From Eubacteriales bacterium (GTDB taxonomy: Bacteria; Bacillota; Clostridia; Oscillospirales; CAG-272), in NCBI GenBank assembly GCA_045594445.1, contig JAZNYL010000020.1, forward strand, positions 1 to 54,311: a DNA stretch of 54,311 nucleotides, in the 5' to 3' direction. The position numbers and the translations under genes were made by a program. The notes under the pieces are model-generated. The model was not told the DNA's origin and did not search any database. It saw only the letters and a list, made by a program, of their open reading frames with translations. The first letter of the stretch is position 1. Each line of letters starts with the position of its first letter. Below are positions 25,816 to 50,159 of the stretch, in pieces.

Positions 25816-25950
25816 TTTTTCTTTTCGGAAAATTGTAAATTTTTTTCTTTGGATGTAGAAATTGTGCAGCATGCCCTCAAAGCCCTTGAAAAGTATAAAG
25901 AAAATATGCTATAATGTCTGTATATTGTTTTGAAAGGAAGTAAACCAAAT

Positions 25951-26961: not shown

Positions 26962-26982
26962 TTTACGCTAAGGAGAATTTTG

Positions 26983-29367
26983 ATGGAACAGTCCAAACTC
27001 TGTCCCCGATGCGGCAAAAGCATTCCTGCGGGTAAGACGTACTGCCTCAGCTGCGGTGCGACGGTGGCGGTCAAATGCCCCGATTGCGGCAAGATATTGC
27101 CGCTGAACCCCAAGGTATGCGACGGTTGCGGACATTCGTTTGTTCGAAAGACGGTCAAAGCAAAGAAAAAGGCAAAGCCTGTGGACTATGCCAAGCTGTA
27201 TCGCATTTTGCTTTGGGTGCTTTCGGGCATTCTGATCGTCTGTCAGATCGTATTTGTCTGCCTGGACGCCATTCGTCTTGCGGTTCCGGACGTGCTGGAT
27301 CTGCATGCGAGCGGCATGGGATTATTCGCTTATTTCTCGGGAGGGGAATTGGCAGGACTTGAGGAGTACCTTAGCCTGTTCAAGATGTCCGAGGAAGATA
27401 TCATCGGCGCGCTGCTTGGCCTTCAGGCCGCGGGCGTGCTGTATTTTGCCGCGCTGATCTGCGCGCTGATCTATGCGCTGATCGCGGGCTTCAACCTCTT
27501 TAGCCTTGGCCCCAAGAGCGTCAAGCAAATGACGCGCTGGGCGGGCATCGTTGCAGGACTTGATCTGCTTGCAAGCGTGCTTTGCATCGCTTGCGGTGCA
27601 GGACTTGCTTCGCGCCTGCGTGCGGTGGAAAAGTACGCAGAGGACGGCATTACGCATACGAGCGTGACGGCCTTTGTATTGATTCCCGCGCTGCTGCTGT
27701 TCGGCACTCTGCTGGTGCTGTACCTGATCTATTACAAGAAGCAGCAGGCAGGTTCCAAGGAAAAGAATCTCAAGGAGATCTTTGTCAACGAAACTACGGT
27801 TGCGCTGGCATCCAAGATCCGTCTGCCATCCACCAAACGCGAGCGCGAGGCTTACGCGCGCGGCAAGGATATGGGCAAGAGAGGCGCCACCATTGGTCTG
27901 ACCAAGAATTTCTGGTGGTATCTGGCCATTCTGGGTGCCGTGCTGATCTTTACGCAGGCGCTCAATAACCCATTTTCGCATATTCTGTTCGTTTTCCTGG
28001 TGCTTTTGTTGCCCGTGCTGTTCCTTTATATGCTGACTGCCAAAATGGCTCTCAACGTATATATGATGTCGGACGCGGCCACCGTGGAAAAGAACCAGCC
28101 CTATACGTATCATTTCCGTGTCAATAACAGCTCCATTTTCGCCTATCCATTCGTGGAGGCAATGATGTGGCTGCCGCAGGCAAACAGCGTGCGCTGCACG
28201 CTGCGTACGGTACGTCTCTCCATGTCGCCCTTTGCAAGCTACGACGTGGGCAACGAGATCCGCTTCCGCTTCCGCGGCACGTACGATATCGGCGTCAAGT
28301 GCTTTTACGTATACGATTTCTTCCGTCTGATGCGCGTGCGCGTGGACGTGGAGAATTACAATCAGGTCTACGTCCTGCCCAGAAAGCTGAATCTGGATGA
28401 GGCTGCCGCGCAGGCAATCTCGGACAGCGTGGCAAGAACGGTGCGCTCACCCATCTCCTACGACCGTCTGGAGGTCAGCGACATCCGCGATTACCGCATG
28501 GGTGACTCGCTCAAGAGCATTCACTGGAAGCTTTCGTCCAAGAGCGAGCAGATGATCGTCAAGGAGTACAACACCGGTACTGCCAACATCACCAACGTGT
28601 ATTGCGATCTGGCGCGCACCTTCCCGGATGCACCTCCCGAGGCGCAAACGCCCGAGCAGATGACGCGCAAGCAGATCAAGGCGCAGAAAAAGGCTGAAAA
28701 GCTGCAGTATGCGTCGGCTTTGGCGGTAGCCAAGGATCAAGGATTGAAAATGAGCCGCGAGCAAAAGGCCAAGCTGCGCGAGGATATTCATGCGTCTGCC
28801 GAGGAAAAGAGAGCTGCGCAGCAGATTCCTGTCGAAGAAGACGAAAACCTGCTTGCATCCGAGCTTTACTATGAGGATATGAACGAATATCTGGCGGACG
28901 GAGTGGTTGAGCTGACCGTGGCCGTGCTGCTGGAGGAATTCCGCAACGGAAAAATTGTCAACCTGATGTGGTTTGACCGTCGCAACGAGGCAGGCGCGTA
29001 TTGTGTCACGCTGCACGGCAAGGAGGATTTTGAGCTGATCTTCCGCGAATTTGCCACAGCGCCCCTGTGTGCTCCCGAGGATACCGTGGCAAGACTTTGC
29101 GCCATGGCGGCCGAGACGCAGAGCACCAAGCAGATTTTCGTCACGGGTGCCATGGATCGCTCGTCGGTCAGCGCACTGTGTTCGATTCCCGGTATGACCG
29201 AGGGCGCAACCTTCGGCTCGTCGCAGGTCATGCTGTATAACCCCGAGGAGCGATTTGCCAACCGCACGCAAAGAATGCGCTATATCGAGGGCTGCCGCGC
29301 GCAGCTGGCCGAGAATGGCCTTGTGCTGGTGACGGGCAGATTGCCCGAGCAAAATGAGGGGAGGTGA
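26983..29367 (+). CDS. DUF58 protein with N-terminal double zinc ribbon and multiple TM helices
   Basis: Four CxxC pairs; hydrophobic segments; RGTYDIG...YDFF...VYVLP...IRDYRMGDSLKSIHWKLSSKSEQMIVKEY. Confidence 0.88.
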   Translation: MEQSKLCPRCGKSIPAGKTYCLSCGATVAVKCPDCGKILPLNPKVCDGCGHSFVRKTVKAKKKAKPVDYAKLYRILLWVLSGILIVCQIVFVCLDAIRLAVPDVLDLHASGMGLFAYFSGGELAGLEEYLSLFKMSEEDIIGALLGLQAAGVLYFAALICALIYALIAGFNLFSLGPKSVKQMTRWAGIVAGLDLLASVLCIACGAGLASRLRAVEKYAEDGITHTSVTAFVLIPALLLFGTLLVLYLIYYKKQQAGSKEKNLKEIFVNETTVALASKIRLPSTKREREAYARGKDMGKRGATIGLTKNFWWYLAILGAVLIFTQALNNPFSHILFVFLVLLLPVLFLYMLTAKMALNVYMMSDAATVEKNQPYTYHFRVNNSSIFAYPFVEAMMWLPQANSVRCTLRTVRLSMSPFASYDVGNEIRFRFRGTYDIGVKCFYVYDFFRLMRVRVDVENYNQVYVLPRKLNLDEAAAQAISDSVARTVRSPISYDRLEVSDIRDYRMGDSLKSIHWKLSSKSEQMIVKEYNTGTANITNVYCDLARTFPDAPPEAQTPEQMTRKQIKAQKKAEKLQYASALAVAKDQGLKMSREQKAKLREDIHASAEEKRAAQQIPVEEDENLLASELYYEDMNEYLADGVVELTVAVLLEEFRNGKIVNLMWFDRRNEAGAYCVTLHGKEDFELIFREFATAPLCAPEDTVARLCAMAAETQSTKQIFVTGAMDRSSVSALCSIPGMTEGATFGSSQVMLYNPEERFANRTQRMRYIEGCRAQLAENGLVLVTGRLPEQNEGR

Positions 29368-29372
29368 GCGGC

Positions 29373-32300
29373 ATGGCAAAAAAAGAGAAAAAAGTCAAGG
29401 CGAAAAAGCAGCCTAAGCAGAAAAAGCAGGTGCCGCTGATTCCCGAGCATCAAAGACCTTTGATCTGTCCGCCCGACCAGGCGGGAAGAGGACTGCGCAC
29501 GCGTATTCTGGGATATGTCTGCCGCTGCCTTGTAGTCATGTGCCTCTGCTGGGCGCTGATGATGTTCTTTGGCGGTGCGTTTACCGGCTCGTACGGCTTC
29601 TGGGTAGGCGTTTCCGAGTTTACCATGCTGGGGCTTGCGCTGTTTGCAACGGCCGTGTTCGGCTTGATTTGCTATAACCGCTATACCGCGCTTGGCGGTC
29701 TTGCGCTGGGTGCTGCGGGCATTGCAATCCTCTCTCCCAACGTCGTGCAGGGCGTGCTGGCACTTTACAACGGCTTTTTGTGCCGCCTGTATCTGTCCAG
29801 ATTTACGTTGTATCTGTCAAATCTCGGTATCGGCGTGCCGAATCTGACCTCGGGCGAGTCGCTGGCGGGGTATTACCTTGAAAAGCTGACCGCTTACGGT
29901 GCGGACGGTATGCTGGTCATGGCGTTGGTGCTGTCGGCTGTATTCGTTCCGCTGATCGCCAAGCGCACGCGTCCCGTGCTGCCCACCATTACCTGCCTTG
30001 TGGTCATCGTGCCCGTATGCGTGTTCAACATCGCATCCAGCGGCCTTGGCGCAGGTATGCTGATCGCGTCGGTGGCTGCCGTGCTGGTCATGTGGGCATA
30101 CGACAAAATGTTCCGCCGCGCGGTGGATGCCAACCAGTACGATACCAAGCTGCAAATGTTTGCAGAGCAGGATAAACCCGAATATCCCGAGGAATATCTG
30201 CAGAAAAAGCGCGAGAAGGCTGAGAAAAAGCTGCAAAAGAAGCTGGCTCGCGAGCAAAAGAAGCAAAATAAGAAAAAAGATAAGACCGTTGACGAGGAAA
30301 TCTCCTCCTACTTTGAGGCTCCCAAGAAAAAGGTCAAGGTCAAAAAGCCGCGCCTGACAGAGCAAGAGAAAAAGGCGCTCAAGCAGCAAAAGAAGCAGCA
30401 GAAGCTACACCAAAAGGAAGTGCAAAAGCAGGTGCGTGCGGCACGCCGCTACGAGCAGGTGACCGATAGCGCCAAGAGCGCGATGGGCGGCTTTGCGGCT
30501 GCCATCATGCTGGCGGTTTGCGTCATTGTGATCATCGTGCCCGCGCTGACCATCAAAAAGCACATGGTCATTGAGCTTTTGGATGAAAAGATCTCGTATG
30601 CGCGCGCGTACGTGACCGCTGCGCTGATGGGCGACGACGAACGTCTGGACGAGCTGGAATACGAGCTGGAGAACGACAACTTTACGCCGCATTCCACCGA
30701 GCTTGAGCACATTACCTTTGACGGCACGCAGCTGTTCTTTATTGAATCGCAGTATCCGGCTAACCTGTATTTGCGCGGTTGGATCGGCGTGGATTACATG
30801 GATGGCGCGTGGTATCCCGCGCAGTCCTCGGACGACGAGGAAAATCCGAGTGCGTTTGATGCGTGGAGAGATTTATACGGCATCAGGCAGCATCCTTCGG
30901 ATCAGATGTTTTACGATTTCTACAAGCTCTCGCATCCCGAGCTTGAGATGTTTGATCCGGGCTACGACTTTTTGAATAAGTACCACAAGGAAGCAGATCT
31001 TGGATTTGTGGCGATGCGCGTGCACATGCGTCGCGTCAACAGCTATTCGTCGCTTCTGTATCTGCCCAGCGTATTTGATCAGAGCCGAGGGCTGTACGGC
31101 TACGGCAACAACGAGCCGAGTGAGCACAGCTTTGTCAACTACTTTGACGGCGTGCTGACCGGCCGTGATTTTGCCGAGAGCGGAACCAAGTACAGCGCCA
31201 TGACCTTTGCACCCATCAAGACCGACAAGGATTGGATCGGCATTCTGGGTGCGGATATTGCGGAGTATAATCTGCAAAAGGAACTGATATTGGCGTATAA
31301 TTCCTACGAGGTGGTGGAGCTTTCGTACGGAACCGACGTCAATACCACGTATTCTGTTAAGGTTGAAGAAGACGTTCCCGCAAGAGGCTTTACCACCATC
31401 AGCTACCGCAGAAGCGGCAAGGTGGTTGCATCCTTTATTCATGAGAGCGAAAGCGTCAGGTATCTGACGCAGGATAAGATGATTATCCTGACCGATGCGG
31501 ATGGCGCCGAATACGTCATTGAGCTGGACAGCAACTATAAGGTGGAGAGCGTCAGCACCCAAAACGAGCAGTCGCTTTTGCACCGCTACGTTACGGGCAA
31601 GGACTCCGATAAGCGCGAGATCGACCGCATTTTGCTTGGCGGCGACCTTGACGACCAGGAGGACGACACCAACTATACCGATTACGTGTACGCGTACTAT
31701 ACCGGTAAGAGCGAGAGCAAGATCTTAGCCGAGCTTGCCGACAAAATCTACCGTGAGGCGACCTACAAGGTCAAGGAAGAAACGGGCGAGTTTGAGCACG
31801 TCGAGGCTGTGACGCACGAGGAATACAGACTTGTGGAAGCCGTCGCCGATCTGGATTGGTCGGGGCAGACCGTTTACTATACCAAGGAAATCCTGGTGGA
31901 TGAAAACGGCGAAGAGATCGGGGAGGAATACCTTCCTGCCGAGGTCTTTGATGAGAATATGGTATGGGCAGGCCTGCTTTACCGGGTTGTGACCGTGGTA
32001 GACGAGGAGGCTTACGACGAGCCGATCTACGCCATTACCGAATACCCCTATGATTTCACATCTGCGGCAATGCCAAACGCGACGTTTGCATCTGCGGCAA
32101 TGCAGAGAAACGATCTTGTCAGAGCGGTCATTGATTATATCATCGAGGATATGGGCTGCACGTATACGCTGACGCCCGACCTTGCGCTGGTCAATGCGGA
32201 TCTTGACGGTGTGGAGAATTTCCTGACCAATACCAAAGAGGGATATTGCGTGCAGTTTGCTTCTGCCGCAGCGCTGATTCTGCGTGAATACGGCATTCCC

Positions 32301-33191
32301 ACGAGATATGTCGAGGGTTATATTGCTTGCGATTTCAATACCAACAGCAGCATCGACAGAGTTGCCAGATCCGCAACCTACGTGCACGACTATGAGGCGC
32401 ATGCGTGGATCGAGGTATTCTTTGACGGCATCGGCTGGGTGCAGTACGAGTGCACGCCCGCTTACTATGCGGGTATGTACGGCGGCATGGGCAGCAGCGA
32501 GAGCGAGGAGGGAAGCGCCTCCACGCCTCCTCCTTCGATCAAGGATGAGATCGAGGATATCGTCAACGCTCCCGACGAAGAGGACGAGGATCAGATGAGT
32601 GAGGAAGAGCTGGCAGAGGAAATGCAGCGTCGCTCGGTCATCATCGCGTCCATCGTGTTTGTCTCGGTGGTAGTTGTGGTTGGCGGCGTGATCGGAGTGC
32701 TCTCCTGGCTCAAGAACCGTGCATCTGCTGCGGAATATAAGAAGAACAGCGCAGTGGATACCGTTCTTTCGGATCATTTCGGTCAGAATACGAGCGAGGA
32801 CGATCGCCGTGAGCTGAGCTACACGGTCATTGACGCGCTGCACAATATTCTGGATATCTACGGGCTCTCTCCCGAGCCGGGAGAATTCAAGGATGAGTAC
32901 GCACGCAGACTGGCATACGAGCTTGAGGATATTCTCGGCCGCTCGCCCGAATACGAGGAGCAGGTCGAAGAGGTTGATCCGAACGCACCCCCTGCGCAAG
33001 AGCTGCCCGTCAGCCCGCACAGATTCGGAGAGATCATGGATGCCATTGCCGCCGAGGAATTCGGTCACGGTATGAGCATCGCACAGATGAAGCAGGTTGC
33101 TGCTCTGTATAAGGACCTGCGCGCAAACGTGCACAAGCGCGTGCCGTTTGGCAGACGCATGGTTCTGCGCTACTTCAAGAACAGACTGTAA
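29373..33191 (+). CDS. Membrane-anchored transglutaminase-like protein (TgpA-like)
   Basis: N-terminal TM bundle; KEGYCVQFASAAALILREYGIPTRYVEGY...HAWIEVFFDGIGWVQYECTP; C-terminal TM. ATG 29373 after GGAGGTG. Confidence 0.9.
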   Translation: MAKKEKKVKAKKQPKQKKQVPLIPEHQRPLICPPDQAGRGLRTRILGYVCRCLVVMCLCWALMMFFGGAFTGSYGFWVGVSEFTMLGLALFATAVFGLICYNRYTALGGLALGAAGIAILSPNVVQGVLALYNGFLCRLYLSRFTLYLSNLGIGVPNLTSGESLAGYYLEKLTAYGADGMLVMALVLSAVFVPLIAKRTRPVLPTITCLVVIVPVCVFNIASSGLGAGMLIASVAAVLVMWAYDKMFRRAVDANQYDTKLQMFAEQDKPEYPEEYLQKKREKAEKKLQKKLAREQKKQNKKKDKTVDEEISSYFEAPKKKVKVKKPRLTEQEKKALKQQKKQQKLHQKEVQKQVRAARRYEQVTDSAKSAMGGFAAAIMLAVCVIVIIVPALTIKKHMVIELLDEKISYARAYVTAALMGDDERLDELEYELENDNFTPHSTELEHITFDGTQLFFIESQYPANLYLRGWIGVDYMDGAWYPAQSSDDEENPSAFDAWRDLYGIRQHPSDQMFYDFYKLSHPELEMFDPGYDFLNKYHKEADLGFVAMRVHMRRVNSYSSLLYLPSVFDQSRGLYGYGNNEPSEHSFVNYFDGVLTGRDFAESGTKYSAMTFAPIKTDKDWIGILGADIAEYNLQKELILAYNSYEVVELSYGTDVNTTYSVKVEEDVPARGFTTISYRRSGKVVASFIHESESVRYLTQDKMIILTDADGAEYVIELDSNYKVESVSTQNEQSLLHRYVTGKDSDKREIDRILLGGDLDDQEDDTNYTDYVYAYYTGKSESKILAELADKIYREATYKVKEETGEFEHVEAVTHEEYRLVEAVADLDWSGQTVYYTKEILVDENGEEIGEEYLPAEVFDENMVWAGLLYRVVTVVDEEAYDEPIYAITEYPYDFTSAAMPNATFASAAMQRNDLVRAVIDYIIEDMGCTYTLTPDLALVNADLDGVENFLTNTKEGYCVQFASAAALILREYGIPTRYVEGYIACDFNTNSSIDRVARSATYVHDYEAHAWIEVFFDGIGWVQYECTPAYYAGMYGGMGSSESEEGSASTPPPSIKDEIEDIVNAPDEEDEDQMSEEELAEEMQRRSVIIASIVFVSVVVVVGGVIGVLSWLKNRASAAEYKKNSAVDTVLSDHFGQNTSEDDRRELSYTVIDALHNILDIYGLSPEPGEFKDEYARRLAYELEDILGRSPEYEEQVEEVDPNAPPAQELPVSPHRFGEIMDAIAAEEFGHGMSIAQMKQVAALYKDLRANVHKRVPFGRRMVLRYFKNRL

Positions 33192-33247: not shown

Positions 33248-33308
33248 GAAAACCCTTGCGAAAGCAGGGGTTTTCTTCTTGACAGGCAAGATGATTTTAT
33301 GGTATACT
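33248..33308 (+). promoter_or_regulatory. Terminator hairpin abutting the sigma-A promoter of lipoprotein 1
   Basis: Hairpin 33248-33275; TTGACA (33279)-18bp-TATACT (33303), extended TG. Confidence 0.8.
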
Positions 33309-33336
33309 GATAAAAACGACTCAAGGAGAAGTGCTG

Positions 33337-34821
33337 ATGAAACGCATCATTTCGTTGTTTCTGTTATTGGCAACGCTGCTTATGGCTCTTGCTGCTTGTG
33401 CCGAGGGAGATACCTCACAGCAAAATACCGACACCACCGCCGCCGAGGAGAGCACCGAGCCCGCGCAGTTGGATGCCATTCCCGAGGATCTGAAATATAA
33501 CGGCGAGGAGATCGTGATCTTAAGCCGCGCCAAGCAGGGCTGGACGCAGGACGAGATTGCGGTGCCCGAGCTCAATTCCGAGCCGGTCAACGATGCGATT
33601 TTCAATCGAAACATTACGGTGTTTGACCGACTCAACGTCAGTATCGTATCTGCTCCCATTGAGGATCCCGACGAATACAAGCCCATTACCGAGATTGAGA
33701 GCATTGTCAAGGCGGGATCGTCGGATTACGACCTGGTCGCATCCGCTTGCTACACCACCATGCCCTCTGTGCTCAAGGGAACGTTTTACGACCTGACTGA
33801 GCTTGAGTACCTGGATCTTTCGCGTGATTACTGGATGCAGAGCTACAACGAGCTGATCTCCTACGGACAGAGCCAGTATACCGCCACGGGCATGATCGCG
33901 CTCTCTACCTATCGCTTTGCCTTTGTCACCATGTTCAACAAGAATCTGTTTGATAACAAAAACGTTCCGTACCTGTACGATGCGGTCAGCAGCGGCGAGT
34001 GGACGCTGGATTATCAGGCCTCGCTGGCAGCGGATTTTTACCAGGACCTAAACGGTAACGGCAGACATGACGAGGCGGATCTGTTCGGCTTTATCTCTTG
34101 CCCGGGACTGAGCACCGACCCTTATTGGAGCTCGTGCAACATGCCCATCCTGGAAAAGAACGATGCGGGCGAATACGTCTGGGTGCTGGACGTCGGACAC
34201 GTGTCGGACGTGGTGGATAAGCTTTTGATCCTGTTCTATGATTGCGGCGGCACCTACCTTTACAAGGAGGAGGCAAGCAATACCGAGCAGGACGAGATTC
34301 GTCGGATGTTTGCTGAGGGTCACAGCGCGATGACCACGCTGCGCCTGATTGCCGTGGAGCAGCCCGACGTGCGCGACATGGAGCAGATGTACGGCATCGT
34401 GCCCATGCCCAAGTTCGACGAGGCTCAAGAGGACTACGGAACGCTGATGCACGACCAGTTTACGGTATTTTGTGTGCCTGTCTCGGCAGCCAAGGATAAG
34501 CTTGAGATGATCGGCGCAACGCTTGAGGTCATGGCCTCCGAGTCGCAAAGAACAGTCAAGCCCGCGTATTATGAGATCGCGCTCAAGCGCAAGTATATGA
34601 GCGACCCCATCGCGTGGGAGATGCTGGATCTCACCTTTGACAGAATGATCACGGATGCAGGCGTGGTTTACGGCCTCTCGCTGAATTTCCCGCATCATAT
34701 GCTGCGCACCATCGTAAACGGCAAAAAGAACAATGCGTCCTCCAAGTTTGCAAGCGTGGCAAAATCGTGCAAGAGATCTCTGATCAAGCTGCAGGGCAAG
34801 CTGGAAAAGCTGGAGGAATGA
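33337..34821 (+). CDS. Extracellular solute-binding-like lipoprotein, paralog 1 of 5
   Basis: Lipobox LAAC; YLDLS..YW, GEWTLD, DLNGNG Ca-loop, YGIVPMPKFDE, KPAYYEIALK; 494 aa. Confidence 0.85.
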   Translation: MKRIISLFLLLATLLMALAACAEGDTSQQNTDTTAAEESTEPAQLDAIPEDLKYNGEEIVILSRAKQGWTQDEIAVPELNSEPVNDAIFNRNITVFDRLNVSIVSAPIEDPDEYKPITEIESIVKAGSSDYDLVASACYTTMPSVLKGTFYDLTELEYLDLSRDYWMQSYNELISYGQSQYTATGMIALSTYRFAFVTMFNKNLFDNKNVPYLYDAVSSGEWTLDYQASLAADFYQDLNGNGRHDEADLFGFISCPGLSTDPYWSSCNMPILEKNDAGEYVWVLDVGHVSDVVDKLLILFYDCGGTYLYKEEASNTEQDEIRRMFAEGHSAMTTLRLIAVEQPDVRDMEQMYGIVPMPKFDEAQEDYGTLMHDQFTVFCVPVSAAKDKLEMIGATLEVMASESQRTVKPAYYEIALKRKYMSDPIAWEMLDLTFDRMITDAGVVYGLSLNFPHHMLRTIVNGKKNNASSKFASVAKSCKRSLIKLQGKLEKLEE

Positions 34822-34833
34822 TCAAATAAACCT

Positions 34834-34897
34834 AAGCGACCACCGGGAACGGCGGTCGCTTTTTTCTCTTGACAAAGTCAAGAGAAAGTGGTATAAT
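34834..34897 (+). promoter_or_regulatory. Terminator + sigma-A promoter of lipoprotein 2
   Basis: Hairpin 34834-34865; TTGACA (34869)-17bp-TATAAT (34892); 11-bp inverted repeat over the -35. Confidence 0.85.
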
Positions 34898-34931
34898 CTG
34901 CCCATAATAGAAATTGTTGGAGAGAAAAAGT

Positions 34932-36416
34932 ATGAAAAAGACAATTGCAATGCTGCTTGCGCTGCTGACGCTGATCGCGTTGTTGGCCGCTTGCGTGGAC
35001 ACACCGAATGAACAAGACGGCGAAACCTCAGCCGGAGAAGAGACCACTGAGCAGGATGCACGTCTGGACGCCATTCCCGAGGATTTGAAATTCAACGGCG
35101 AGGACGTGGTGATCCTGAGCCGCGGTGTGCAGAAGTATACCGTGGATGAGATCGCTGTGCCCGAGCTCACTTCCGATCCTGTCAACGATGCGGTATTCAA
35201 TCGTAACATTGTGGTCGGTGACCGTTTGAACGTTAAGATCGTGTCCCAACCGCTTGAGGATTCCGACCCGTTCAAAACGGTGGCGGAGATCGAGCGCGTG
35301 GTCAAGGCGGGCAGCGATGATTACGATCTGTTCGCCGGTGCGTGCTATGCAACCTTGCCCGCAGCACTTGGCGGCACCTTCTACGATCTGCGCGATCTGG
35401 AATATCTGGATCTTTCGCAGAGCTACTGGATGCAGGACTACAATGATACGATCTCCTATGGTGACAGCCAATATACCGCTACGGGTATGATTGCACTCTC
35501 TACCTACCGTCTGGCAATTGTCACGCTGTTCAATAAGAAGCTGTTTGACGATAAGAGCCTGCCTTACCTGTACGAGGCGGTAGAGAACAACGAATGGACG
35601 CTGGACTACCATGCTTCTCTCGTTGAGGACTTCTACCAGGATCTCAACGGTGACGGAAAGCATGACGAGGATGACTTGTTCGGTCTTGTGACCAGCGCCG
35701 TAATCAACGTAGACGCTTATTGGAGCGCATGCGATATCGCTTTGGTAGATAAGGATGCGGACGGCGCCTATACCTGGGCACTGGATACCGAAAAGCTCTC
35801 CAACGCGGTAGATAAGCTTTTGCTTCTGATCCACGAAAGCGGCGGTACCTATCTCTGCAAGGAGACTGAGGGCAGCTCCGCTCAGCCTGCGATCCGCGAG
35901 ATGTTTGCAGAGGGCAGAGCCGCTACCTCCACGCTGCGTCTGCTGGCTGTTGAGCTGGATGAGATTCGCAATATGCAAGAGGAGTACGGCATCGTGCCCA
36001 TGCCCAAGTACGACGAGCTGCAGAAGAATTATCAAACGCAGATGCACGACCAGTTCACGGTATTTGCAATTCCCTCATCGGCTGCCCAGAGCAAGATAGA
36101 GATGATCGGCGCTGTCATGGAGGTCATGGCATCCGAGAACCTTCGTATGGTCAAGCCCGCGTACTATGAGATCGCACTCAAGAGAAAGTACATGAGCGAC
36201 CCGATTGCATGGGATATGCTGGATATGGCATTTGAGCACGTAATCGTGGATGCAGGCGTGATTTATGCCGATTCGCTGGAATATCCTCACCATCACCTGC
36301 GCACTATGATCGAGAATAAGAACAACAGTGTGGCTTCGACCTTTGGTATGTCCAAGAATAAGATGAATAAGCAGCTTGCCAAGATCGTTAATAAGATGGA
36401 GAATCTGGAAGGATGA
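34932..36416 (+). CDS. Solute-binding-like lipoprotein, paralog 2 of 5
   Basis: Same conserved blocks; lipobox LAAC; 494 aa. Confidence 0.85.
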   Translation: MKKTIAMLLALLTLIALLAACVDTPNEQDGETSAGEETTEQDARLDAIPEDLKFNGEDVVILSRGVQKYTVDEIAVPELTSDPVNDAVFNRNIVVGDRLNVKIVSQPLEDSDPFKTVAEIERVVKAGSDDYDLFAGACYATLPAALGGTFYDLRDLEYLDLSQSYWMQDYNDTISYGDSQYTATGMIALSTYRLAIVTLFNKKLFDDKSLPYLYEAVENNEWTLDYHASLVEDFYQDLNGDGKHDEDDLFGLVTSAVINVDAYWSACDIALVDKDADGAYTWALDTEKLSNAVDKLLLLIHESGGTYLCKETEGSSAQPAIREMFAEGRAATSTLRLLAVELDEIRNMQEEYGIVPMPKYDELQKNYQTQMHDQFTVFAIPSSAAQSKIEMIGAVMEVMASENLRMVKPAYYEIALKRKYMSDPIAWDMLDMAFEHVIVDAGVIYADSLEYPHHHLRTMIENKNNSVASTFGMSKNKMNKQLAKIVNKMENLEG

Positions 36417-36438
36417 TCTGATCCCCGTATGAACGAGG

Positions 36439-36508
36439 GCCGCGCGCAGCAATTTCGCTGAGCGCGGCTTTTTTTGCCTTGACAAAGCGGGGAGTTGTAT
36501 GCTATACT
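36439..36508 (+). promoter_or_regulatory. Terminator + sigma-A promoter of lipoprotein 3
   Basis: Hairpin 36439-36475; TTGACA (36479)-18bp-TATACT (36503). Confidence 0.85.
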
Positions 36509-36540
36509 GAGAATATCATAAAGAAAAGGAAAGCCGAGAA

Positions 36541-38025
36541 ATGAAAAGATTTTTGACAGTATTGCTTGTTTTAGTGACCCTGCTTTCTACCCTGGCTGCT
36601 TGTGTGGATGCGCCCGTTGAGGAGGGCGGAACCGACGGCTCTGCCGTTGAGGAAACCACTGAGCTGTTGTACTTGGACAATCTTCCCGAGGATCTCAAGT
36701 TTAACGGGGAGGATATCGTGATCCTGAACCGCGCGCTGCAAGGATGGACGGCAGACGAGGTTGCCGTGCCCGAGCTCAATTCCGAGCCTGTGAACGACGC
36801 CATGTTCAACAGAAACGTGGCAATTGCCGACAGACTGAAGCTCAATATTGTCTCCGCTGCCCTGCAAGATCCGAGTGAGCAGCTGCCGATCGACGAGATC
36901 AAGCGTGCCGTCAAGGCCGGATCGGATGAGTACGACATGGTGGCTGCAGCCGCGTATGTGACCGCACCTGCCGTAGTGGAGGGCACGTTTATCGACCTGA
37001 CACAGTTGAATTACCTGGATCTTTCGCAGGATTACTGGATGCAGGATTATAACGAGGCGATTTCGTATCAGGGCATGCAGCATACTGCAACGGGTATGAT
37101 TGCGCTGTCCACCTATCGCTTTGTCTTTGTGACCATGTTCAATAAGGATGAATTTGACAACAAGAGCGTGCCGTACCTGTACGATGCGGTCTCCGATGGC
37201 GAATGGACGCTGGATTACCAGGCGACGCTTGCTGAGGATTTTTATCAGGACATCAACGGCTCTGGTAAAGCAGACGAGGGCGATTTCTACGGCTTTGTGT
37301 CCTGCTGGGGCATTAGTGTGGACGGATACTGGGCGTCCTGCGATTTGCCTATCGTGCAAAAGAACGAGGACGGTGAATACACGTACGTGCTGGATCTGGA
37401 GCGTTATTCCAACGTCATGGATAAAGTGCTGTATCTGTTTTACGGATACAATGGCACCGACATACACAGCCCGATTACGTACAACGTCGAGCAGGATAAT
37501 ATGAGAGAGATCTTTTCCCGCGGCGAGTGTGCCATGATCACGCTGCGTCTGATGGCGGTAGAGCAGCCGGACGTGCGTAATATGGAGCAGGCATACGGTA
37601 TCGTGCCAATGCCCAAATATGATGCTGCGCAGCCCGAATACGGCTCGGTCATGCACGACCAGTTCACGGTGTTCTCGGTTCCTGCATCGGCTGCTTCGGG
37701 CAAGTACGATATGATCGGTGCTGCCATGGAGGCTATGGCCTCCGAGTCCTTGCGGCTGGTACGCCCTGCATATTATGAGATCGCACTCAAGCGCAAGTAT
37801 ATGAGCGACCCTGTGGCGTGGGATATGCTGGATCTGATCTTCGCAGTCATGCGTACTGACCCTTCGTTTGTGTATATTACTTACATGGGCAGCCCGCATC
37901 ACACCATGCGTAATATCGCGCAAAGCAAGAAAAATACGGTTGCATCCTCGTGCAAAAAGCTGAACAATACCGTTTCCAGGCAGATCACCAAGCTGCAAAA
38001 AAAGCTGGAGAATTTAGCTGACTGA
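36541..38025 (+). CDS. Solute-binding-like lipoprotein, paralog 3 of 5
   Basis: Same conserved blocks; lipobox LAAC; 494 aa. Confidence 0.85.
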   Translation: MKRFLTVLLVLVTLLSTLAACVDAPVEEGGTDGSAVEETTELLYLDNLPEDLKFNGEDIVILNRALQGWTADEVAVPELNSEPVNDAMFNRNVAIADRLKLNIVSAALQDPSEQLPIDEIKRAVKAGSDEYDMVAAAAYVTAPAVVEGTFIDLTQLNYLDLSQDYWMQDYNEAISYQGMQHTATGMIALSTYRFVFVTMFNKDEFDNKSVPYLYDAVSDGEWTLDYQATLAEDFYQDINGSGKADEGDFYGFVSCWGISVDGYWASCDLPIVQKNEDGEYTYVLDLERYSNVMDKVLYLFYGYNGTDIHSPITYNVEQDNMREIFSRGECAMITLRLMAVEQPDVRNMEQAYGIVPMPKYDAAQPEYGSVMHDQFTVFSVPASAASGKYDMIGAAMEAMASESLRLVRPAYYEIALKRKYMSDPVAWDMLDLIFAVMRTDPSFVYITYMGSPHHTMRNIAQSKKNTVASSCKKLNNTVSRQITKLQKKLENLAD

Positions 38026-38037
38026 TCAAACCGAATG

Positions 38038-38105
38038 AAAAAGTGGCAAGCTCACAGAAGTTTGCCACTTTTTTCTTGACAAAGCAAGCTTTATTATGAT
38101 ATACT
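38038..38105 (+). promoter_or_regulatory. Terminator + sigma-A promoter of lipoprotein 4
   Basis: Hairpin 38038-38074; TTGACA (38076)-18bp-TATACT (38100). Confidence 0.85.
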
Positions 38106-38139
38106 GAGGACAACGAACAAGAAAGAGAGTGTGACCCCG

Positions 38140-39618
38140 ATGAAAAAATTTTTAGCATTGCTTCTCGTTTTCGCCACACTGATCTCTGTGCTGGTCGCCT
38201 GTGCGGACACAGGGGACGAGCAGGCGGAGGATTCAACGGTTGCCGAGGAGAACACCGAGCTTTTGCAGCTGGATAATATTCCGGACAGTCTGAAATATGA
38301 CGGTGAGGAGGTTACCATTGTCAGCCGTGCGTTCCTTGGCTGGACCTGGGATGAGGTCGCCGTACCCGAGCTGAACTCCGAGCCGGTCAACGACGCCGTT
38401 TTTAACAGAAACGTGACAGTCGGGGACAGACTTGGCATCAATATCGTTTCTCATGCCATTGACGATGCAGATCAGGCAAAGCCGATCGCAGAGGTGCAGC
38501 GCGCCGTGCTGGCGGGCTCTGCCGAGTTCGACCTGCTGGCGGGTGCTGCTTATCTTGTGCTGCAGGAGTCTTTGGAGGGTCTGTTCTGCGATATGACGCA
38601 GCTGGATTACCTGGATCTTTCGCAGGAATATTGGATGCAGGATTATAATAATGTGATCTCTTATCACGACAGGCAGTACAGCGCAACCGGTATGATCGCG
38701 CTGTCCACCTACCGCTTTGCTTTCGTGACGCTGTTCAATAAGAATCAGTTTGACAATAAGAACGTGCCCTACCTGTACGAGGCGGTCAATAACGGCGAAT
38801 GGACGCTGGACTATCAGTCTGTGCTCGCCGAGGACTTTTATCAGGACCTGAACGGTGACGGCAAAAAGGACGAGGACGATTTCTACGGTCTGATCACCTC
38901 TCCCTATATCAGCACCGACCCCTATTGGGCATCCTGCGATCTGACCCTGGTGGAAAAGAACGCGGACGGCGAATATGAATACGTGCTGGATTCGGCAAGA
39001 CTGTCCGATGCGACCGACAAGATCCTGCAGCTGTTCTATGAGAGCGGCACTTACGTGTATCCGCACACCAACTACGACGCTGAGCAGGACGATATCCGCA
39101 TTGCGTTTGCAAAAGGCAACGGTGCGATGTGCACCACCCGTCTTGTTGCGGTCGAGCAGGCAGACGTGCGTAATATGGAGGAGCAGTACGGTATCGTGCC
39201 CATGCCCAAATTCAATCAGGAGCAGGAGAAGTACGGCACGCTGATGCACGACCAGTTCACGGTATATGCCATCCCCGCTACGGCAGACGCAACCAGATTC
39301 GATATGCTGGGTGCGGTGCTGGAGGTCATGGCTTCCGAGTCCTTGCGTCAGGTCAAGCCCGCGTATTACGAGATCGCGCTCAAGCGTAAGTACATGAGTG
39401 ACCCGGTCGCGTGGGAGATGCTGGATATGATTTTCGACACGGTCAGGATCGACGCGGGCATCGTGTACACCAACGCACTGGGCAACCCGCACGACCAGCT
39501 GCGACAGATCATTACCTCCAAGAAGAACACGGTTGCTTCCAGGTATAAGAAAATGGATAAAACGGTGGCAAAGAATCTGTCCAAGATGGAAAAGAAATTT
39601 GAAAAGCTGGAGCAGTAA
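38140..39618 (+). CDS. Solute-binding-like lipoprotein, paralog 4 of 5
   Basis: Same conserved blocks; lipobox LVAC; 492 aa. Confidence 0.85.
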   Translation: MKKFLALLLVFATLISVLVACADTGDEQAEDSTVAEENTELLQLDNIPDSLKYDGEEVTIVSRAFLGWTWDEVAVPELNSEPVNDAVFNRNVTVGDRLGINIVSHAIDDADQAKPIAEVQRAVLAGSAEFDLLAGAAYLVLQESLEGLFCDMTQLDYLDLSQEYWMQDYNNVISYHDRQYSATGMIALSTYRFAFVTLFNKNQFDNKNVPYLYEAVNNGEWTLDYQSVLAEDFYQDLNGDGKKDEDDFYGLITSPYISTDPYWASCDLTLVEKNADGEYEYVLDSARLSDATDKILQLFYESGTYVYPHTNYDAEQDDIRIAFAKGNGAMCTTRLVAVEQADVRNMEEQYGIVPMPKFNQEQEKYGTLMHDQFTVYAIPATADATRFDMLGAVLEVMASESLRQVKPAYYEIALKRKYMSDPVAWEMLDMIFDTVRIDAGIVYTNALGNPHDQLRQIITSKKNTVASRYKKMDKTVAKNLSKMEKKFEKLEQ

Positions 39619-39625
39619 GAAAAGC

Positions 39626-39687
39626 AGCGGAGTGGTGTGAAGCCACTCCGCTTTTTTCTTGACAAAGTTACAAGGATATGTTATACT
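39626..39687 (+). promoter_or_regulatory. Terminator + sigma-A promoter of lipoprotein 5
   Basis: Hairpin 39626-39657; TTGACA (39659)-17bp-TATACT (39682). Confidence 0.85.
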
Positions 39688-39720
39688 GAATTCAATTCAT
39701 TATGAAAGAGAGTGACTGCC

Positions 39721-41193
39721 ATGAAAAAGCTTTTCGCATTACTCCTGTTGCTTGCAACCATGCTTTCGCTGCTTGCTGCCTGTGTGGATCCCGGCGAGCA
39801 AGAAGAACAGACGTCGGCTTCTGCCGAGTCGGCCGAAACTGCTTTCCTGGACGCCGTACCGGATGAGTTGGACTTTGACGGAGACGACGTCGTCATCATC
39901 AGCCGTGCACTGCAGGGCTGGACGTGGGATGAGGTTTCGGTTCCCGAGCTCAATTCCGAGCCGGTCAACGATGCCATCTATAACCGCAATCTCGTAGTCA
40001 ACGATCGCCTGGGCGTCAATATCGTGTCCCATGCCCTGGACGATCCCAGCCCCGAGCCGCCCGTACAGGCGGTACGTGACGCCGTGCTGGCGGGATCGGA
40101 CGAGTACGATCTGCTGGCGGGTGCGTGCTACCTGGTGATGTATACCACGCTGGAGGGCAACTTCCGCGATCTGACCCAGATGACGTATCTGGACCTGTCG
40201 CAGAACTATTGGACGCAGGATTATAACAACACCCTGTCCTATGACGGCAGACAATACAGTGCAACGGGTATGATTGCACTCTCAAACTACCGCTTTGCGT
40301 TCGTGACCGCGTTCAACAAGACCGCGTTTGATGACAGAAGCCTGCCGTACCTGTACGAGGCGGTTGAGAGCGGTGAGTGGACGCTGGACTATCAGGCAAC
40401 GCTGTCGGAAAACTTTTACCGTGACCTCAACGGTAACGGAGAGGCGGACAAGGATGACTTTTACGGTCTGATCACCTCTTCGGGTATCAGCACCGACCCC
40501 TATTGGGTGTCCTGTGATATTTCGCTGCTGGAAAAGAATCCCGACGGCGAATACGAATACGTGCTGGATCTGCAGAAGCTGTCGGATGCGACCGATAAAA
40601 TTTTGAATCTGTATTACGAGAGCGGCTCTTACGTATATGCCGGTGACGATGCCGATACCGAGCAGGACGAGCTCCGCCGCGATTTCACGGCAGGCAAGGC
40701 GGCGATGATCACCACGCGTCTGGTTGCGGTCGAGCAGGCAGACGTGCGTAACATGAAGGATCCGTACGGCATCGTGCCTATGCCCAAGTTTGACAAGGCG
40801 CAAAAGGACTACGGCACGCTTCAGCACGACCAGATCACGGTGTACGGCATTCCCGTAACAGTCGCGGAGAACAGAGTCGAGATGCTGGGTGCAGTGCTTG
40901 AGGTCATGGCCTCGGAGAGTGCACGCACGGTCAAACCTGCGTATTATGAGGTTGCGCTCAAGCGTAAGTATATGAGTGACCCTGTTGCGTGGGAAATGCT
41001 GGATAAGATCTTTGATACCGTCCGCATCGACGCGGGTGTCGTGTACGTTTCGGTTATCGGCGGACCGCACGCGCTGCTGCGCGACATTGCCGCATCCAAG
41101 CAGAATACCGTGTCCTCCACGTATTCCAAGCTTGCCAAGAGCATCCGAAAGTCCTTGGATGAGATGCACGAGAAGCTGGATGAGCTGCAATAA
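39721..41193 (+). CDS. Solute-binding-like lipoprotein, paralog 5 of 5
   Basis: Same conserved blocks; lipobox LAAC; 490 aa. Confidence 0.85.
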   Translation: MKKLFALLLLLATMLSLLAACVDPGEQEEQTSASAESAETAFLDAVPDELDFDGDDVVIISRALQGWTWDEVSVPELNSEPVNDAIYNRNLVVNDRLGVNIVSHALDDPSPEPPVQAVRDAVLAGSDEYDLLAGACYLVMYTTLEGNFRDLTQMTYLDLSQNYWTQDYNNTLSYDGRQYSATGMIALSNYRFAFVTAFNKTAFDDRSLPYLYEAVESGEWTLDYQATLSENFYRDLNGNGEADKDDFYGLITSSGISTDPYWVSCDISLLEKNPDGEYEYVLDLQKLSDATDKILNLYYESGSYVYAGDDADTEQDELRRDFTAGKAAMITTRLVAVEQADVRNMKDPYGIVPMPKFDKAQKDYGTLQHDQITVYGIPVTVAENRVEMLGAVLEVMASESARTVKPAYYEVALKRKYMSDPVAWEMLDKIFDTVRIDAGVVYVSVIGGPHALLRDIAASKQNTVSSTYSKLAKSIRKSLDEMHEKLDELQ

Positions 41194-41214: not shown

Positions 41215-41564
41215 CAGCCCGATGGGGCGTGAAAAATTAGCGGCCGAATAAATAAAAGCAGAAGTCAGAGATGGCTTCTGCTTTTGGCTTTTATGATGCA
41301 CAACTCCGCCCGTGTCATCCTGAGCGGAACGAAGTGGAGTCGAACGCGGAGCGCGACACGGAGTGTCGGGATTTACGGGCGAATGATGTTGCCCCTCGTA
41401 GATCCTCAAAACGCTGCAAGCGTTTTGACTTTCAAAAATCAGCAATTTGTTGCAGATTTTTGAAAGTTCGACTACGAAAACATCCACACGGGATGTTTTC
41501 TCCGCTCAGGATGACACGAGGGGGATTGCGCTTTTCCCGCTTATTCCGCAGCCCCATGGGGCTG
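41215..41564 (-). mobile_element. MITE/REP-like element, copy 3 (inverted)
   Basis: Reverse complement closely matches 7021-7367; IR 41311-41328 / 41501-41518. Confidence 0.88.
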
Positions 41565-41574: not shown

Positions 41575-41964
41575 TTACTCCGCGGTCAACGTCACGGTCA
41601 ATTCAAATGCATCGCCAAAATGATATTCCTCGGAATCCTTGGCAAAGCCCTCGGGCACGCTGACGATGGTGATATGGAAATTGCTCTCTGCCTCGGTCAG
41701 GGTGACAACGCCCTCGGCGTTTGTGGTCATGGGCATGCGGCAGCCGTTATCGTCGCAGAACTGGACACCAACGCCGGATACGGGCGCACCGCTCGGATCA
41801 AGCACGGTGACAGTATAGGTGACGTTGCTGTCGGCATTTTGCTCTGTACCTTCTCCCTCGGGCGCGGGAGCATCGCAGCCGATCAGCAAAAGAGAGAGCG
41901 AAAGCAGCAGCGCAAGTGAGAGCAGCGCGGATTTTGTGATGGTTTTCATATTCAGATATTTCAT
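41575..41964 (-). CDS. Small lipoprotein with a beta-sandwich (carboxypeptidase-regulatory/Cna-like) domain
   Basis: Lipobox LIGC; YTVTVLDPSGAPVSGVGVQFC...C...TTNAEG...VPEGF. Start may be 41949. Confidence 0.75.
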   Translation of the reverse strand: MKYLNMKTITKSALLSLALLLSLSLLLIGCDAPAPEGEGTEQNADSNVTYTVTVLDPSGAPVSGVGVQFCDDNGCRMPMTTNAEGVVTLTEAESNFHITIVSVPEGFAKDSEEYHFGDAFELTVTLTAE

Positions 41965-44417: not shown

Positions 44418-44505
44418 AAATTTATGAAAATACAGATTTGCTATTGATTTTAAGCATACTTTATGGTAAAATAACGGTAGTATTTTTTACCGGAGGACAT
44501 CCAAA

Positions 44506-45441
44506 ATGGCACTTGTAACAACGACAGAAATGTTCAAGAAGGCTTACCGCGGCGGCTACGCCATCGGCGCTTTCAACATCAACAACATGGAAATTATCCA
44601 GGCGATCACCGAGGCAGCAAGAGAAGAAAACTCTCCCGTTATTCTGCAGGTCTCCGCAGGCGCACGTAAGTACGCAAAGCACGAATACCTCATGGGCCTT
44701 GCGCAGGCTGCTATCCGTGACACCGATATTGATCTGGCCCTTCACCTGGACCACGGCGCAGATTTCGAGATCTGCAAGGCTTGCATCGACGGCGGCTTTA
44801 CCTCCGTTATGATCGACGGCTCTCACCACTCCTTTGAGGACAACATCGCGCTGACCCGCAAGGTCGTTGAGTACGCACACGCACACGGCGTTGTGGTTGA
44901 GGGTGAGCTTGGTAAGCTGGCCGGCATTGAGGACGACGTCAAGGTCAAGGCAGAGGACGCTATGTTCACCAACCCCGACGAGGTTGAGGAATTCGTCACC
45001 CGCACAGGCGTTGACTCCCTGGCAATCGCCATCGGCACCAGCCACGGTGCATATAAGTTCAAGCCCGGCACCAAGCCTCAGCTCCGCTTTGACGTGCTGG
45101 AGGAGATCTCCAAGAGACTGCCCGAGTTCCCCATCGTTCTGCACGGTGCTTCTTCCGTTCCTCAGGAGTACGTTCGTGAGATCAACGCGCTCGGTGGCAA
45201 CCTGCCCGACGCGATCGGTATCCCCGAGGATATGCTGCGCCAGGCTGCTTCTATGGCAGTTTGCAAGATCAACATCGACTCGGATATCCGTCTGGCTATG
45301 ACCGCAGGCATCCGCCGCGTGCTCGTAGAGCAGCCCGACGTCTTTGACCCCCGCAGCTACCTGACCGTCGCACGCAGCGAGGTTAAGAAGATGGTTCAGC
45401 ACAAGATCAGAAACGTGCTGGGCTCCTCTAACACCCTTTAA
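44506..45441 (+). CDS. fba: Class II fructose-1,6-bisphosphate aldolase
   Basis: AIGAFN, LHLDHG, FTSVMIDGS, VEGELG, AIGTSHGAYK, IVLHGAS, KINIDSD. Confidence 0.97.
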   Translation: MALVTTTEMFKKAYRGGYAIGAFNINNMEIIQAITEAAREENSPVILQVSAGARKYAKHEYLMGLAQAAIRDTDIDLALHLDHGADFEICKACIDGGFTSVMIDGSHHSFEDNIALTRKVVEYAHAHGVVVEGELGKLAGIEDDVKVKAEDAMFTNPDEVEEFVTRTGVDSLAIAIGTSHGAYKFKPGTKPQLRFDVLEEISKRLPEFPIVLHGASSVPQEYVREINALGGNLPDAIGIPEDMLRQAASMAVCKINIDSDIRLAMTAGIRRVLVEQPDVFDPRSYLTVARSEVKKMVQHKIRNVLGSSNTL

Positions 45442-45453
45442 TTCGACCACACC

Positions 45454-45497: not shown

Positions 45498-46232
45498 ATG
45501 AAACATACCGAGCATTTTTTAACCAAATGGCACGACACCGATCCCGATCTGATCATTCGCCCCTCGCAGGTGCTGATGTATATGCAGGAGTGCGCAAACA
45601 GACAGTGCCGCGCGATCGACCTGGACCTTGACGAGATCCACCAGCGCGACGGCATCGGCTTTATCATGAGCCGCATTCAGGTCAGCATCGACGCGCCTCT
45701 GCCGCCCTATGTCCGCATCTGGGCCAACACGTGGTGTCCGCCATCGCGCTCCTATTCCTTCAACCGTTGCTTTGAAATTGAATACGACGGCAAGGTCTAC
45801 GCCCGCGCAACCTCCGAATGGGCCTTGGTCAATCTTAAGGACCGCACCTTTATCAAGTCCGAGGACTTCCCCGCGGCATCCCGGTTCCCCTCGGATGAAA
45901 TGATTGACAAAAACGAGCTGCCCCGCCGCGTGCGCATTTCCTCGTCCATCCCCTTGACCGAGGTTGGCACGCGCGAAATCCGCTATTCCGATCTGGATTA
46001 CAACATGCACATGAACAACACCAAGTACCCCGATATGCTGTGCGATTACGTACCGGATATGCTTGGAAAATTCGTCAGTGGCTTTTCGCTCTCCTACCTG
46101 CACGAGGCCGCTTACGGTGACGTGCTGACCGTATACCGCGCAGAGAGCGAGAACGGCTATTGGTTCCGCCTGATCAACCAGGACGGCAAGACCTGCATGG
46201 AAGCGGAGCTGTATTTGAAAAACATGGAATAA
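45498..46232 (+). CDS. Acyl-ACP thioesterase family protein
   Basis: MQECA, ATSEWALV, RYSDLDYNMHMNNTKY, YLHEA; ATG 45498 after GGAGG. Confidence 0.88.
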   Translation: MKHTEHFLTKWHDTDPDLIIRPSQVLMYMQECANRQCRAIDLDLDEIHQRDGIGFIMSRIQVSIDAPLPPYVRIWANTWCPPSRSYSFNRCFEIEYDGKVYARATSEWALVNLKDRTFIKSEDFPAASRFPSDEMIDKNELPRRVRISSSIPLTEVGTREIRYSDLDYNMHMNNTKYPDMLCDYVPDMLGKFVSGFSLSYLHEAAYGDVLTVYRAESENGYWFRLINQDGKTCMEAELYLKNME

Positions 46233-46239
46233 AAATTCT

Positions 46240-46269
46240 GGAATCCCTTTCTGCAAGGGATTCCTTTTT
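46240..46269 (+). terminator. Terminator
   Basis: GGAATCCCTT...AAGGGATTCC-TTTTT. Confidence 0.8.
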
Positions 46270-46278
46270 GTTGAAGAA

Positions 46279-46391
46279 GGCGACGAGGAGCAAGCCCCTC
46301 CCCTACGCGACAAAGGCAAAGCAATTTTACCCAAAACAGGAATCATCCGTAAAATATCAGGTCGTAGGGGAGGGGCTTGCTCCTCCTCGCC
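46279..46391. repeat. Inverted pair of GTAG-type REPs
   Basis: 46279-46307 is the reverse complement of 46363-46391 (CGTAGGGGAGGGGCTTGCTCCTCsTCGCC) with 1 mismatch. Confidence 0.85.
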
Positions 46392-46407
46392 TGCAACAAC
46401 ATCATAT

Positions 46408-46447
46408 AAACCACCCCTTTGGCATCGTGTGATACCAAAGGGGTTTT
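46408..46447 (-). terminator. Terminator of the ABC operon
   Basis: ACCCCTTTGGCATC...GATACCAAAGGGGT stem. Confidence 0.7.
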
Positions 46448-46464
46448 CATGTAAATATTGTTTT

Positions 46465-50129: not shown

Positions 50130-50159
50130 ATTATCACATCCTTTCTGATTCGTTCTTTT

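Follow-up and report, generated by a model that had tools for sequence, protein, structure and literature searches.

Several binding proteins share one ATP-binding cassette (ABC) translocator in the HisJ/ArgT system and among the OppA paralogs of Borrelia. Three published accounts describe related arrangements. MppA is an orphan receptor that uses OppBCDF (PMC3173086), sharing of an ATPase has been described for MsmX among the CUT1 importers of Firmicutes (PMC7658222), and Bordetella pertussis carries 76–79 Bug genes versus two tctAB sets, with most of the Bug genes lacking a membrane partner nearby (PMC5812351). Here we analyze a stretch of 54,311 nucleotides (the window), which is contig C20 of an Eubacteriales genome of 2.37 Mb (127 contigs, 96.8% complete) and carries a tandem array of five genes for solute-binding-like lipoproteins. 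We moderately favor a joint reading in which these proteins are orphan receptors with the CUT1 fold that arose by cassette duplication and serve a shared, unlinked translocator, the last permease pair of a gene cluster on contig C105, together with an unlinked ATPase.

The source genome was compared with 15 other genomes of the same genus, with further genomes of the order (e.g., G008, G010, G016, G020, G021, G026, and G029), and with a class-level sample. Related loci (n = 46) were collected by alignment of the five array proteins, and a set of 68 diverse relatives was used for profile and model work. The related records are metagenome-assembled genomes of uncultured Clostridia, Eubacteriales, and Oscillospiraceae from the guts of ruminants and other animals.

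Five paralogs with a predicted carbohydrate-binding fold

The array consists of five plus-strand open reading frames (ORFs) that lie head to tail between positions 33248 and 41300, with starts set at the ATG behind each ribosome-binding site (Table 1). A first-pass annotation had described them as paralogs of 490–494 amino acids with start-to-start distances of 1581–1609 bp. The sequence confirms this, with successive distances of 1595, 1609, 1599, and 1581 bp. Copies 2–5 share 58–62% protein identity with copy 1 (mean column identity 73%), and a DNA repeat analysis returned five copies, 62–77% identical, at a spacing of 1578–1609 bp. As read from sequence, each of the five proteins begins with a predicted signal peptide, a hydrophobic N-terminus that closes in L(A/V)AC. 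The lipobox Cys is conserved at 90% or more across the 68 relatives, and NCBIfam gives weak lipoprotein-signal matches.

None of the five proteins scored above cut-off in Pfam or NCBIfam, the best match being SBP_bac_1 (E 0.2; 12.1 bits vs a cut-off of 26), and no TctC-type family was listed in the Pfam scans. Among the diverse relatives, SBP_bac_1 was matched by 12/68 and SBP_bac_8 by 4/68 (E ≤ 0.01). A sequence search of solved structures, using profiles of the 5 and of the 68 sequences, returned nothing significant, with AbnE (6rjy) as the best match at E 0.015. An AlphaFold2 model of copy 4, built on the 68 relatives, reached a predicted local distance difference test score (pLDDT) of 93 and a predicted template modeling score of 0.87. 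VIA-align placed residues 58–488 of this model closest to the maltotriose-binding protein 4qrz (Z 26.3; 361 residues aligned) and to CbpB (7x0i; Z 25.5), with further structural matches to the sulfoquinovosyl-binding protein (SQBP) and to the glycerophosphodiester-binding protein UgpB. Foldseek matches of the same model had E values of about 1e-13.

The full two-lobe fold and many family-invariant residues are kept, and a protein-atlas query with a stored homolog led to Bacillota clusters labeled “hypothetical” or solute-binding and to no others. Because of the fold matches, the SBP_bac_1 and SBP_bac_8 matches among relatives, and the lipobox in all five proteins, we place them, as modeled, among the lipoprotein-type binding proteins of the CUT1 carbohydrate class, which curated models miss here because the sequences have diverged too far. 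The solute-binding character proposed in the first-pass annotation is thus borne out by the confident model and its structural matches.

A large putative receptor family encoded apart from transporters

A scan of the window genes agreed with the earlier description of an array that has no import permease, importer ATPase, or regulator beside it. The sole ABC genes of the window (46465–48354 and 48282–50189, minus strand) start about 5 kb downstream of the array and encode fused ABC_membrane and ABC_tran domains of the exporter type. The orphan status extends to the whole source genome, which contains exactly 19 full-length family members on 10 contigs. Its 16 BPD_transp_1 permease matches, corresponding to about 8 pairs of all classes, fall on 7 other contigs, so that 0/19 family genes share a contig with any of them, and neither a permease nor an ATPase gene lies beside any of the 19 copies. 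The 14 copies outside the array have housekeeping genes, glycoside hydrolases (GH77, GH123, and GH2), and large secreted proteins without a family as neighbors.

This abundance is shared by related genomes. All 15 other same-genus genomes searched carry 14–20 copies each. Among further genomes of the order, family matches exceed permease matches in G029 (31 vs 15), in G021 (20 vs 11), and in G010 and G008 (20 vs 17 each). The most extreme case is G016, the sole genome of a sister genus in the comparison, with at least 150 family matches versus 8 permease matches. In this 2.5-Mb assembly (72% complete), the family occupies about 9% of the bases. Its copies (e.g., at loci L119–L121) are intact lipoproteins, 28–70% identical, that form tight, operon-like arrays in which −4 to 39 nt separate neighboring copies, apart from a single gap of 1.1 kb that holds another gene. 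One G016 copy sits between two DUF5696-like genes (reading frame of about 630 amino acids) that also resemble GH101/GH129, and one array ends beside a PTS_EIIC_2 membrane-protein gene. A PTS_EIIC_2 protein was considered as a partner and dropped, as the one such gene of the source genome lies on a contig without a family gene.

A profile search of 1.84 billion cluster representatives retrieved 9268 sequences at E ≤ 1e-3 and 3727 at E ≤ 1e-30. The few names supplied by the sources read “hypothetical protein”, with a single “extracellular solute-binding protein”. The family is seldom seen beyond the order, in at least 3/201 class-level genomes at E ≤ 1e-30, a floor because only 7 candidates were scored per genome. 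The family is lineage-specific and has most likely moved away from an original location next to a transporter.

Some binding proteins activate sensor kinases (PMC11113362), and the array promoters show no obvious operator, both of which would fit ligand sensors that signal via a membrane kinase or chemoreceptor and do not feed a transporter. We consider this quite improbable. The genes beside the 19 copies and those of the inspected related loci include no kinase, response regulator, or chemoreceptor. The sole regulator seen is an AraC gene within an insertion in one species, and 19 to at least 150 sensors would need many partners.

A candidate partner in a conserved seven-gene cluster

The source genome encodes several carbohydrate-type translocators. 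Contig C85 carries a MalF/MalG-like pair together with an amylase, its own 575-amino-acid binding protein, and an MsmK-like ATPase, while contig C127 carries a permease pair with an ATPase at the contig end. The third, at C105:718–14967 (locus L108), is a cluster of seven genes that encode, in order, a 1258-amino-acid fusion protein with an SBP_bac_8 domain, two permeases, a 717-amino-acid membrane protein with NHL, TPR, and Yip1 domains, a 1427-amino-acid DUF5696 protein, and two further permeases. No ATPase gene lies inside this cluster. The last permease pair (C105:718–2823; permeases of 327 and 368 amino acids) emerged as the candidate partner of the array family. Two other sequences of the cluster region were rejected: the large fusion protein is not matched by the family profile and was discarded as the source of the family, and an ORF that resembles a lipoprotein gene, located beyond the last permease where contig C105 begins, is low-complexity sequence behind a terminator and not a family gene.

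The seven-gene order is identical in 30/30 cluster loci from other genomes, of which 10 come from the same order and 20 were drawn from the 51 DUF5696-positive genomes among 200 at the class level. In the two class-level genomes with a single family match, that gene directly follows the last permease of the cluster. Including these two, 20/22 class-level loci could be evaluated, the other two being cut by contig ends, and a gene for a family-like solute-binding protein (SBP) flanks the cluster in 9/20. It lies directly after the last permease in seven of these, 1.4 kb after it in one, and ahead of the fusion-protein gene, on the side of the first permease pair, in the ninth (L130). Two further class-level loci have generic SBP_bac_1 lipoproteins of 452–520 amino acids in the same flanking place. 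When the flanking SBPs were searched back against the source genome, 8/11 matched the 19 family genes first (six of these matched nothing else and two gave one weaker extra match), and none matched the canonical binding proteins of that genome.

Within its own order, 0/10 clusters keep a binding-protein gene after the last permease, which leaves that pair without an adjacent receptor gene. The two components also tend to occur together: 18/18 family-positive genomes that are at least 90% complete have a cluster-type DUF5696 match, and G020, a 94% complete genome of the same taxonomic family, lacks both the SBP family and DUF5696 and keeps 12 other permease matches. The suggestion that a partner would be encoded elsewhere has thereby gained a concrete candidate, the last C105 permease pair, as the nearest distant homologs of the family adjoin such clusters.

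Taken together, these observations suggest the following mechanism. The five genes would encode membrane-anchored lipoprotein carbohydrate receptors, and the array would have been made by local tandem duplication of a unit that has its own sigma-A-type promoter and intrinsic terminator. The family would have left its ancestral site beside a transporter and multiplied elsewhere. Each copy would most likely bind its own oligosaccharide outside the cell and deliver it to a shared translocator encoded elsewhere, for which the C105:718–2823 pair is the best candidate, and energy would come from an unlinked MsmK/MalK-type ATPase (C85:15346–16470). A carbohydrate role agrees with the GH123, GH2, and GH77 genes found next to other copies of the source genome and with the sugar-isomerase-like genes and AraC regulator that interrupt the array in one species. 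Ligand binding, docking on the C105 pair, ATPase sharing, and monocistronic transcription are steps that we infer. We also hypothesize, tentatively, a “many receptors, one gate” mode of Gram-positive glycan uptake, in which all family receptors dock on one permease pair of a Yip1/DUF5696 double-translocator machine and the diet is widened by duplicating cassettes, not transporters; this possible generalization falls short of an even chance. The genome G026, which has six clusters and no family member, may represent an alternative route in which the whole machine is duplicated.

The receptors could instead be orphans of a different CUT1 translocator, namely the C85 MalF/MalG-like pair, the first pair of the cluster, or the C127 pair. 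The presence of other carbohydrate-type permease pairs in the source genome and the position of the family-like gene beside the first permease pair, not the last, at L130 would agree with this. However, both the C85 pair and the first pair of the cluster come with a neighboring binding protein that the family profile does not match, the family-like gene directly follows the last permease in 7/9 flanked loci, and G020 keeps a MalF-like pair without any family member. We regard a different translocator as unlikely.

Several observations weigh against a shared translocator in the C105 cluster. The G016 assembly, which is 72% complete, yielded neither an ortholog of the last permease (best E 1.7e-7) nor a DUF5696 match of the cluster type, only weak DUF5696 paralogs of the GH101/GH129-like kind. 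G002, G003, and G012 (71–80% complete) are likewise family-positive without a cluster-type match. No adjacent binding-protein gene accompanies 9/20 evaluable class-level clusters, and in five genomes the cluster is present although no family member reaches E ≤ 1e-20, so it can exist without the family. A second tree places a long-branch PotD-like outgroup between the family and the cluster-flanking SBPs, and their sisterhood is therefore not established. The co-occurrence counts overstate the link, because related genomes are not independent. Lastly, with regard to transcription, each of the five genes is covered piecewise by RNA-library contigs, some of which run across intergenic gaps, three or more in all. 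These data are assembled contigs from two metatranscriptome libraries of one study, which cannot show transcript ends and in which array parts without cover in one run carry no meaning; the bridging contigs could reflect either read-through or DNA carried over into the library.

The apparent absence of a candidate translocator in G016 would also fit proteins that have lost their transport role and act as surface glycan-capture or adhesion proteins, holding polysaccharide for neighboring enzymes. Receptors far outnumber translocators, and several copies have a glycoside hydrolase or a large secreted protein without a known family next to them, as might be expected of such proteins. Against this stand the retention of the complete two-lobe fold with its many family-invariant residues and the location of the nearest homologs elsewhere, which are encoded within the transporter cluster. 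We regard such a surface role without transport as unlikely and retain the orphan-receptor reading.

Array genes as putative expression cassettes

All five units show the layout that had been reported for them, in which a hairpin with its T-run is followed by TTGACA, an extended −10 element, and the gene. The two promoter elements, TTGACA and TGnTATA(A/C)T, are separated by 17–18 nt, match 11–12 of 12 hexamer positions, and include the TG in all five cases. The array region contains 15 promoter-like sites versus 7.8 ± 2.6 in shuffles. Hairpins lie directly 5′ of each promoter, with one more after gene 5, and have folding energies of −17.5 to −26.7 kcal/mol (folding z −3.6 to −5.1; 0–1 of 200 shuffles equally good). 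Their T-runs abut the −35 box, where units 2–5 share TTTTTTCTTGACAAAG.

Table 1. Positions of the array genes, promoters, and hairpins in the window.
Feature	Position	Strand	Details
Hairpin after upstream transglutaminase-like gene, T-run abuts promoter 1	33248..33275	+	−20.0 kcal/mol, z −4.6
Promoter 1	33279..33308	+	TTGACA, 18 nt, TGgTATACT; 11/12 with TG
Paralog 1	33337..34821	+	494-aa lipoprotein, predicted MalE/CUT1-type binding-protein fold
Terminator hairpin 1, abuts promoter 2	34834..34861	+	−19.7 kcal/mol
Promoter 2	34869..34897	+	TTGACA, 17 nt, TGgTATAAT; 12/12 with TG
Paralog 2	34932..36416	+	494 aa
Terminator hairpin 2	36435..36472	+	−26.7 kcal/mol
Promoter 3	36479..36508	+	TTGACA, 18 nt, TGcTATACT; 11/12 with TG
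Paralog 3	36541..38025	+	494 aa
Terminator hairpin 3	38040..38071	+	−17.5 kcal/mol
Promoter 4	38076..38105	+	TTGACA, 18 nt, TGaTATACT; 11/12 with TG
Paralog 4	38140..39618	+	492 aa; copy used for structure model
Terminator hairpin 4	39626..39652	+	−21.1 kcal/mol
Promoter 5	39659..39687	+	TTGACA, 17 nt, TGtTATACT; 11/12 with TG
Paralog 5	39721..41193	+	490 aa
Terminator hairpin after paralog 5	41253..41286	+	−20.7 kcal/mol, z −5.1

Every unit thus has a sigma-A-type promoter and an intrinsic terminator to itself, and the copies are probably transcribed one by one. Exact TTGACA-N14/15-TGnTATA(A/C)T sites occur 112 times across the 2.37-Mb genome, many of them with A/T-rich tracts upstream, and only 6 adjoin family genes, so near-consensus extended −10 promoters are a habit of this genome and not a special mark of the array. 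In related arrays, the strict promoter was found at 39/51 genes, and 27 of those 39 also have an abutting hairpin with a T-run. Some neighboring copies in other species lie 13–35 nt apart or overlap, with neither promoter nor terminator between them. The cassette is thus the usual and not a universal layout, because adjacent copies in some species are operonic.

Conservation and evolution of the array

We examined the orthologous loci for cognate permeases and for a fixed copy number, and found neither. Permease homologs are absent from all of the related loci (0/46). At loci with complete downstream DNA, the array comprises five copies (L062), four (L066 and L077), or three (L072, L084, and L085), and L064 has at least five. 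On one contig of the same-genus genome G001 (L073/L083), two copies are followed by a 6.5-kb insertion and three more copies, one of them broken. The insertion (L073:11047–17399) encodes an Fe-ADH-like enzyme, three xylose-isomerase-like TIM-barrel proteins, an SF0329-family protein, and a divergent AraC regulator, with no permeases among its genes. In the same locus, one array copy after the insertion has an in-frame TGA. Among 7 loci taken from relatives that carry between one and five copies, only L059 shows permeases, a Pot-type pair located 3.7 kb away, and the homologous system of the source genome includes a binding protein of its own.

In a quick maximum-likelihood tree of 50 proteins, each window copy groups on short branches with the copies at the same position in other species, and copies 1 and 2 derive from a later split. 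In the second tree, the five array proteins form one clade (support 100) inside a clade of all 19 genome copies (support 98). Because the window copies group by position across species, the sequences indicate that the array history is one of old duplication followed by gain and loss, not of homogenization.

This history bears on the proposal, also made in the first-pass annotation, that the proteins are variable surface proteins, in which case the array would serve antigen switching or immune evasion. A tandem array of surface lipoproteins whose copy number differs between species is what that proposal would expect. The details contradict it: each position has conserved orthologs on short branches in other species, the paralogs are old and differ by about 40% with no homogenization, all five promoters are intact and near-consensus, and no invertible segments, simple repeats, or repeat elements flanking the promoters were found in the array DNA. 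We consider variable surface antigens scarcely credible.

Neighboring features of the window

Directly 5′ of the array, the region 25930–33191 encodes a MoxR-type AAA ATPase, a 795-amino-acid protein with an N-terminal double zinc ribbon, and a 1275-amino-acid multi-pass transglutaminase-like membrane protein. This trio forms a conserved operon that keeps its syntenic place just ahead of the array in every related species seen.

Just 3′ of the array lies an element of about 230 bp (41298–41531). Its two inverted ends (31 nt, core GTCATCCTGAGCGG) are 84% complementary, and a palindrome lies inside the element. Contigs of metagenome and RNA libraries pile up to 130–285× on this element versus about 5–15× over genes, with many loose ends, and it looks like a widespread miniature repeat element. 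It is followed on the minus strand by a gene (41575–41964) for a 129-amino-acid lipoprotein with a single Ig-like domain (Big_1/CarboxypepD_reg-like, below cut-off), which has its own perfect 12/12 extended −10 promoter at 42031–42003. Two adjacent minus-strand ORFs of 329 amino acids (44461–45450 and 45519–46508) and a plus-strand ORF of 1264 amino acids (10105–13899) are without a Pfam match at E ≤ 0.01.

Comparison with known systems

The array proteins resemble CUT1 binding proteins such as MalE, CbpB of Clostridium thermocellum (7x0i), and Atu4361 of Agrobacterium (4qrz) in that the same two-lobe fold extends over the whole mature protein (Z 25–26, about 360 residues). They are also anchored as lipoproteins, as is usual in Gram-positive bacteria, and distant family members reach Pfam SBP_bac_1 or SBP_bac_8. 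In contrast, they are about 100 residues longer than MalE and are missed by curated profiles, and the 19 copies of the source genome have no adjacent permease or ATPase. The seven-gene cluster adjoins the nearest homologs of the family in distant Clostridia, whereas the window genes lie on a contig separate from the C105 cluster.

No paper was found for “DUF5696” in a full-text literature search, nor a published name for the seven-gene cluster, and full-text searches on orphan SBPs, with supplements outside their reach, turned up no account of Clostridia with a large family of orphan sugar receptors. To call the array an undescribed system, as had been suggested, is too strong for the proteins themselves and fair for the scale of the family and its likely partner cluster. 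Our analysis offers a first functional handle on the DUF5696 cluster, which occurs in 51/200 sampled class-level genomes. The lineage comprises uncultured gut and rumen Clostridia whose glycan uptake is read from annotation, in which the family genes appear as “hypothetical”. If the proposed arrangement is true, transporter counts badly understate the substrate range of these bacteria, because specificity sits in dozens of unlinked receptor genes. The cassettes, which combine a near-consensus promoter with an efficient-looking terminator, may also serve as expression parts in this group.

Expansion of SusD in Bacteroides would be a functional analog of the receptor expansion proposed here. The MppA/Opp, HisJ/ArgT, and Borrelia OppA systems share with our model the docking of separately encoded receptors on one translocator, which here would be the C105 pair; in those cases the receptors number two to five and take peptides or amino acids, whereas we propose tens to more than a hundred sugar-type receptors. 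The Bug proteins of Bordetella, orphan TctC-type receptors of tripartite tricarboxylate transporters (TTT), are similar in the over-representation of receptors versus membrane components, which here amounts to 19 versus 16 permease matches in the source genome and to at least 150 versus 8 in G016. They differ in that TTT systems are secondary transporters with periplasmic receptors for carboxylates, whereas the array family has another fold, consists of Gram-positive lipoproteins, and would serve ATP-driven ABC transport, likely of sugars. A further difference is that an ancestral partner cluster can be named for the array family. The family would thus provide an ABC example of receptor over-representation, a phenomenon best known so far from the TTT systems of Bordetella.

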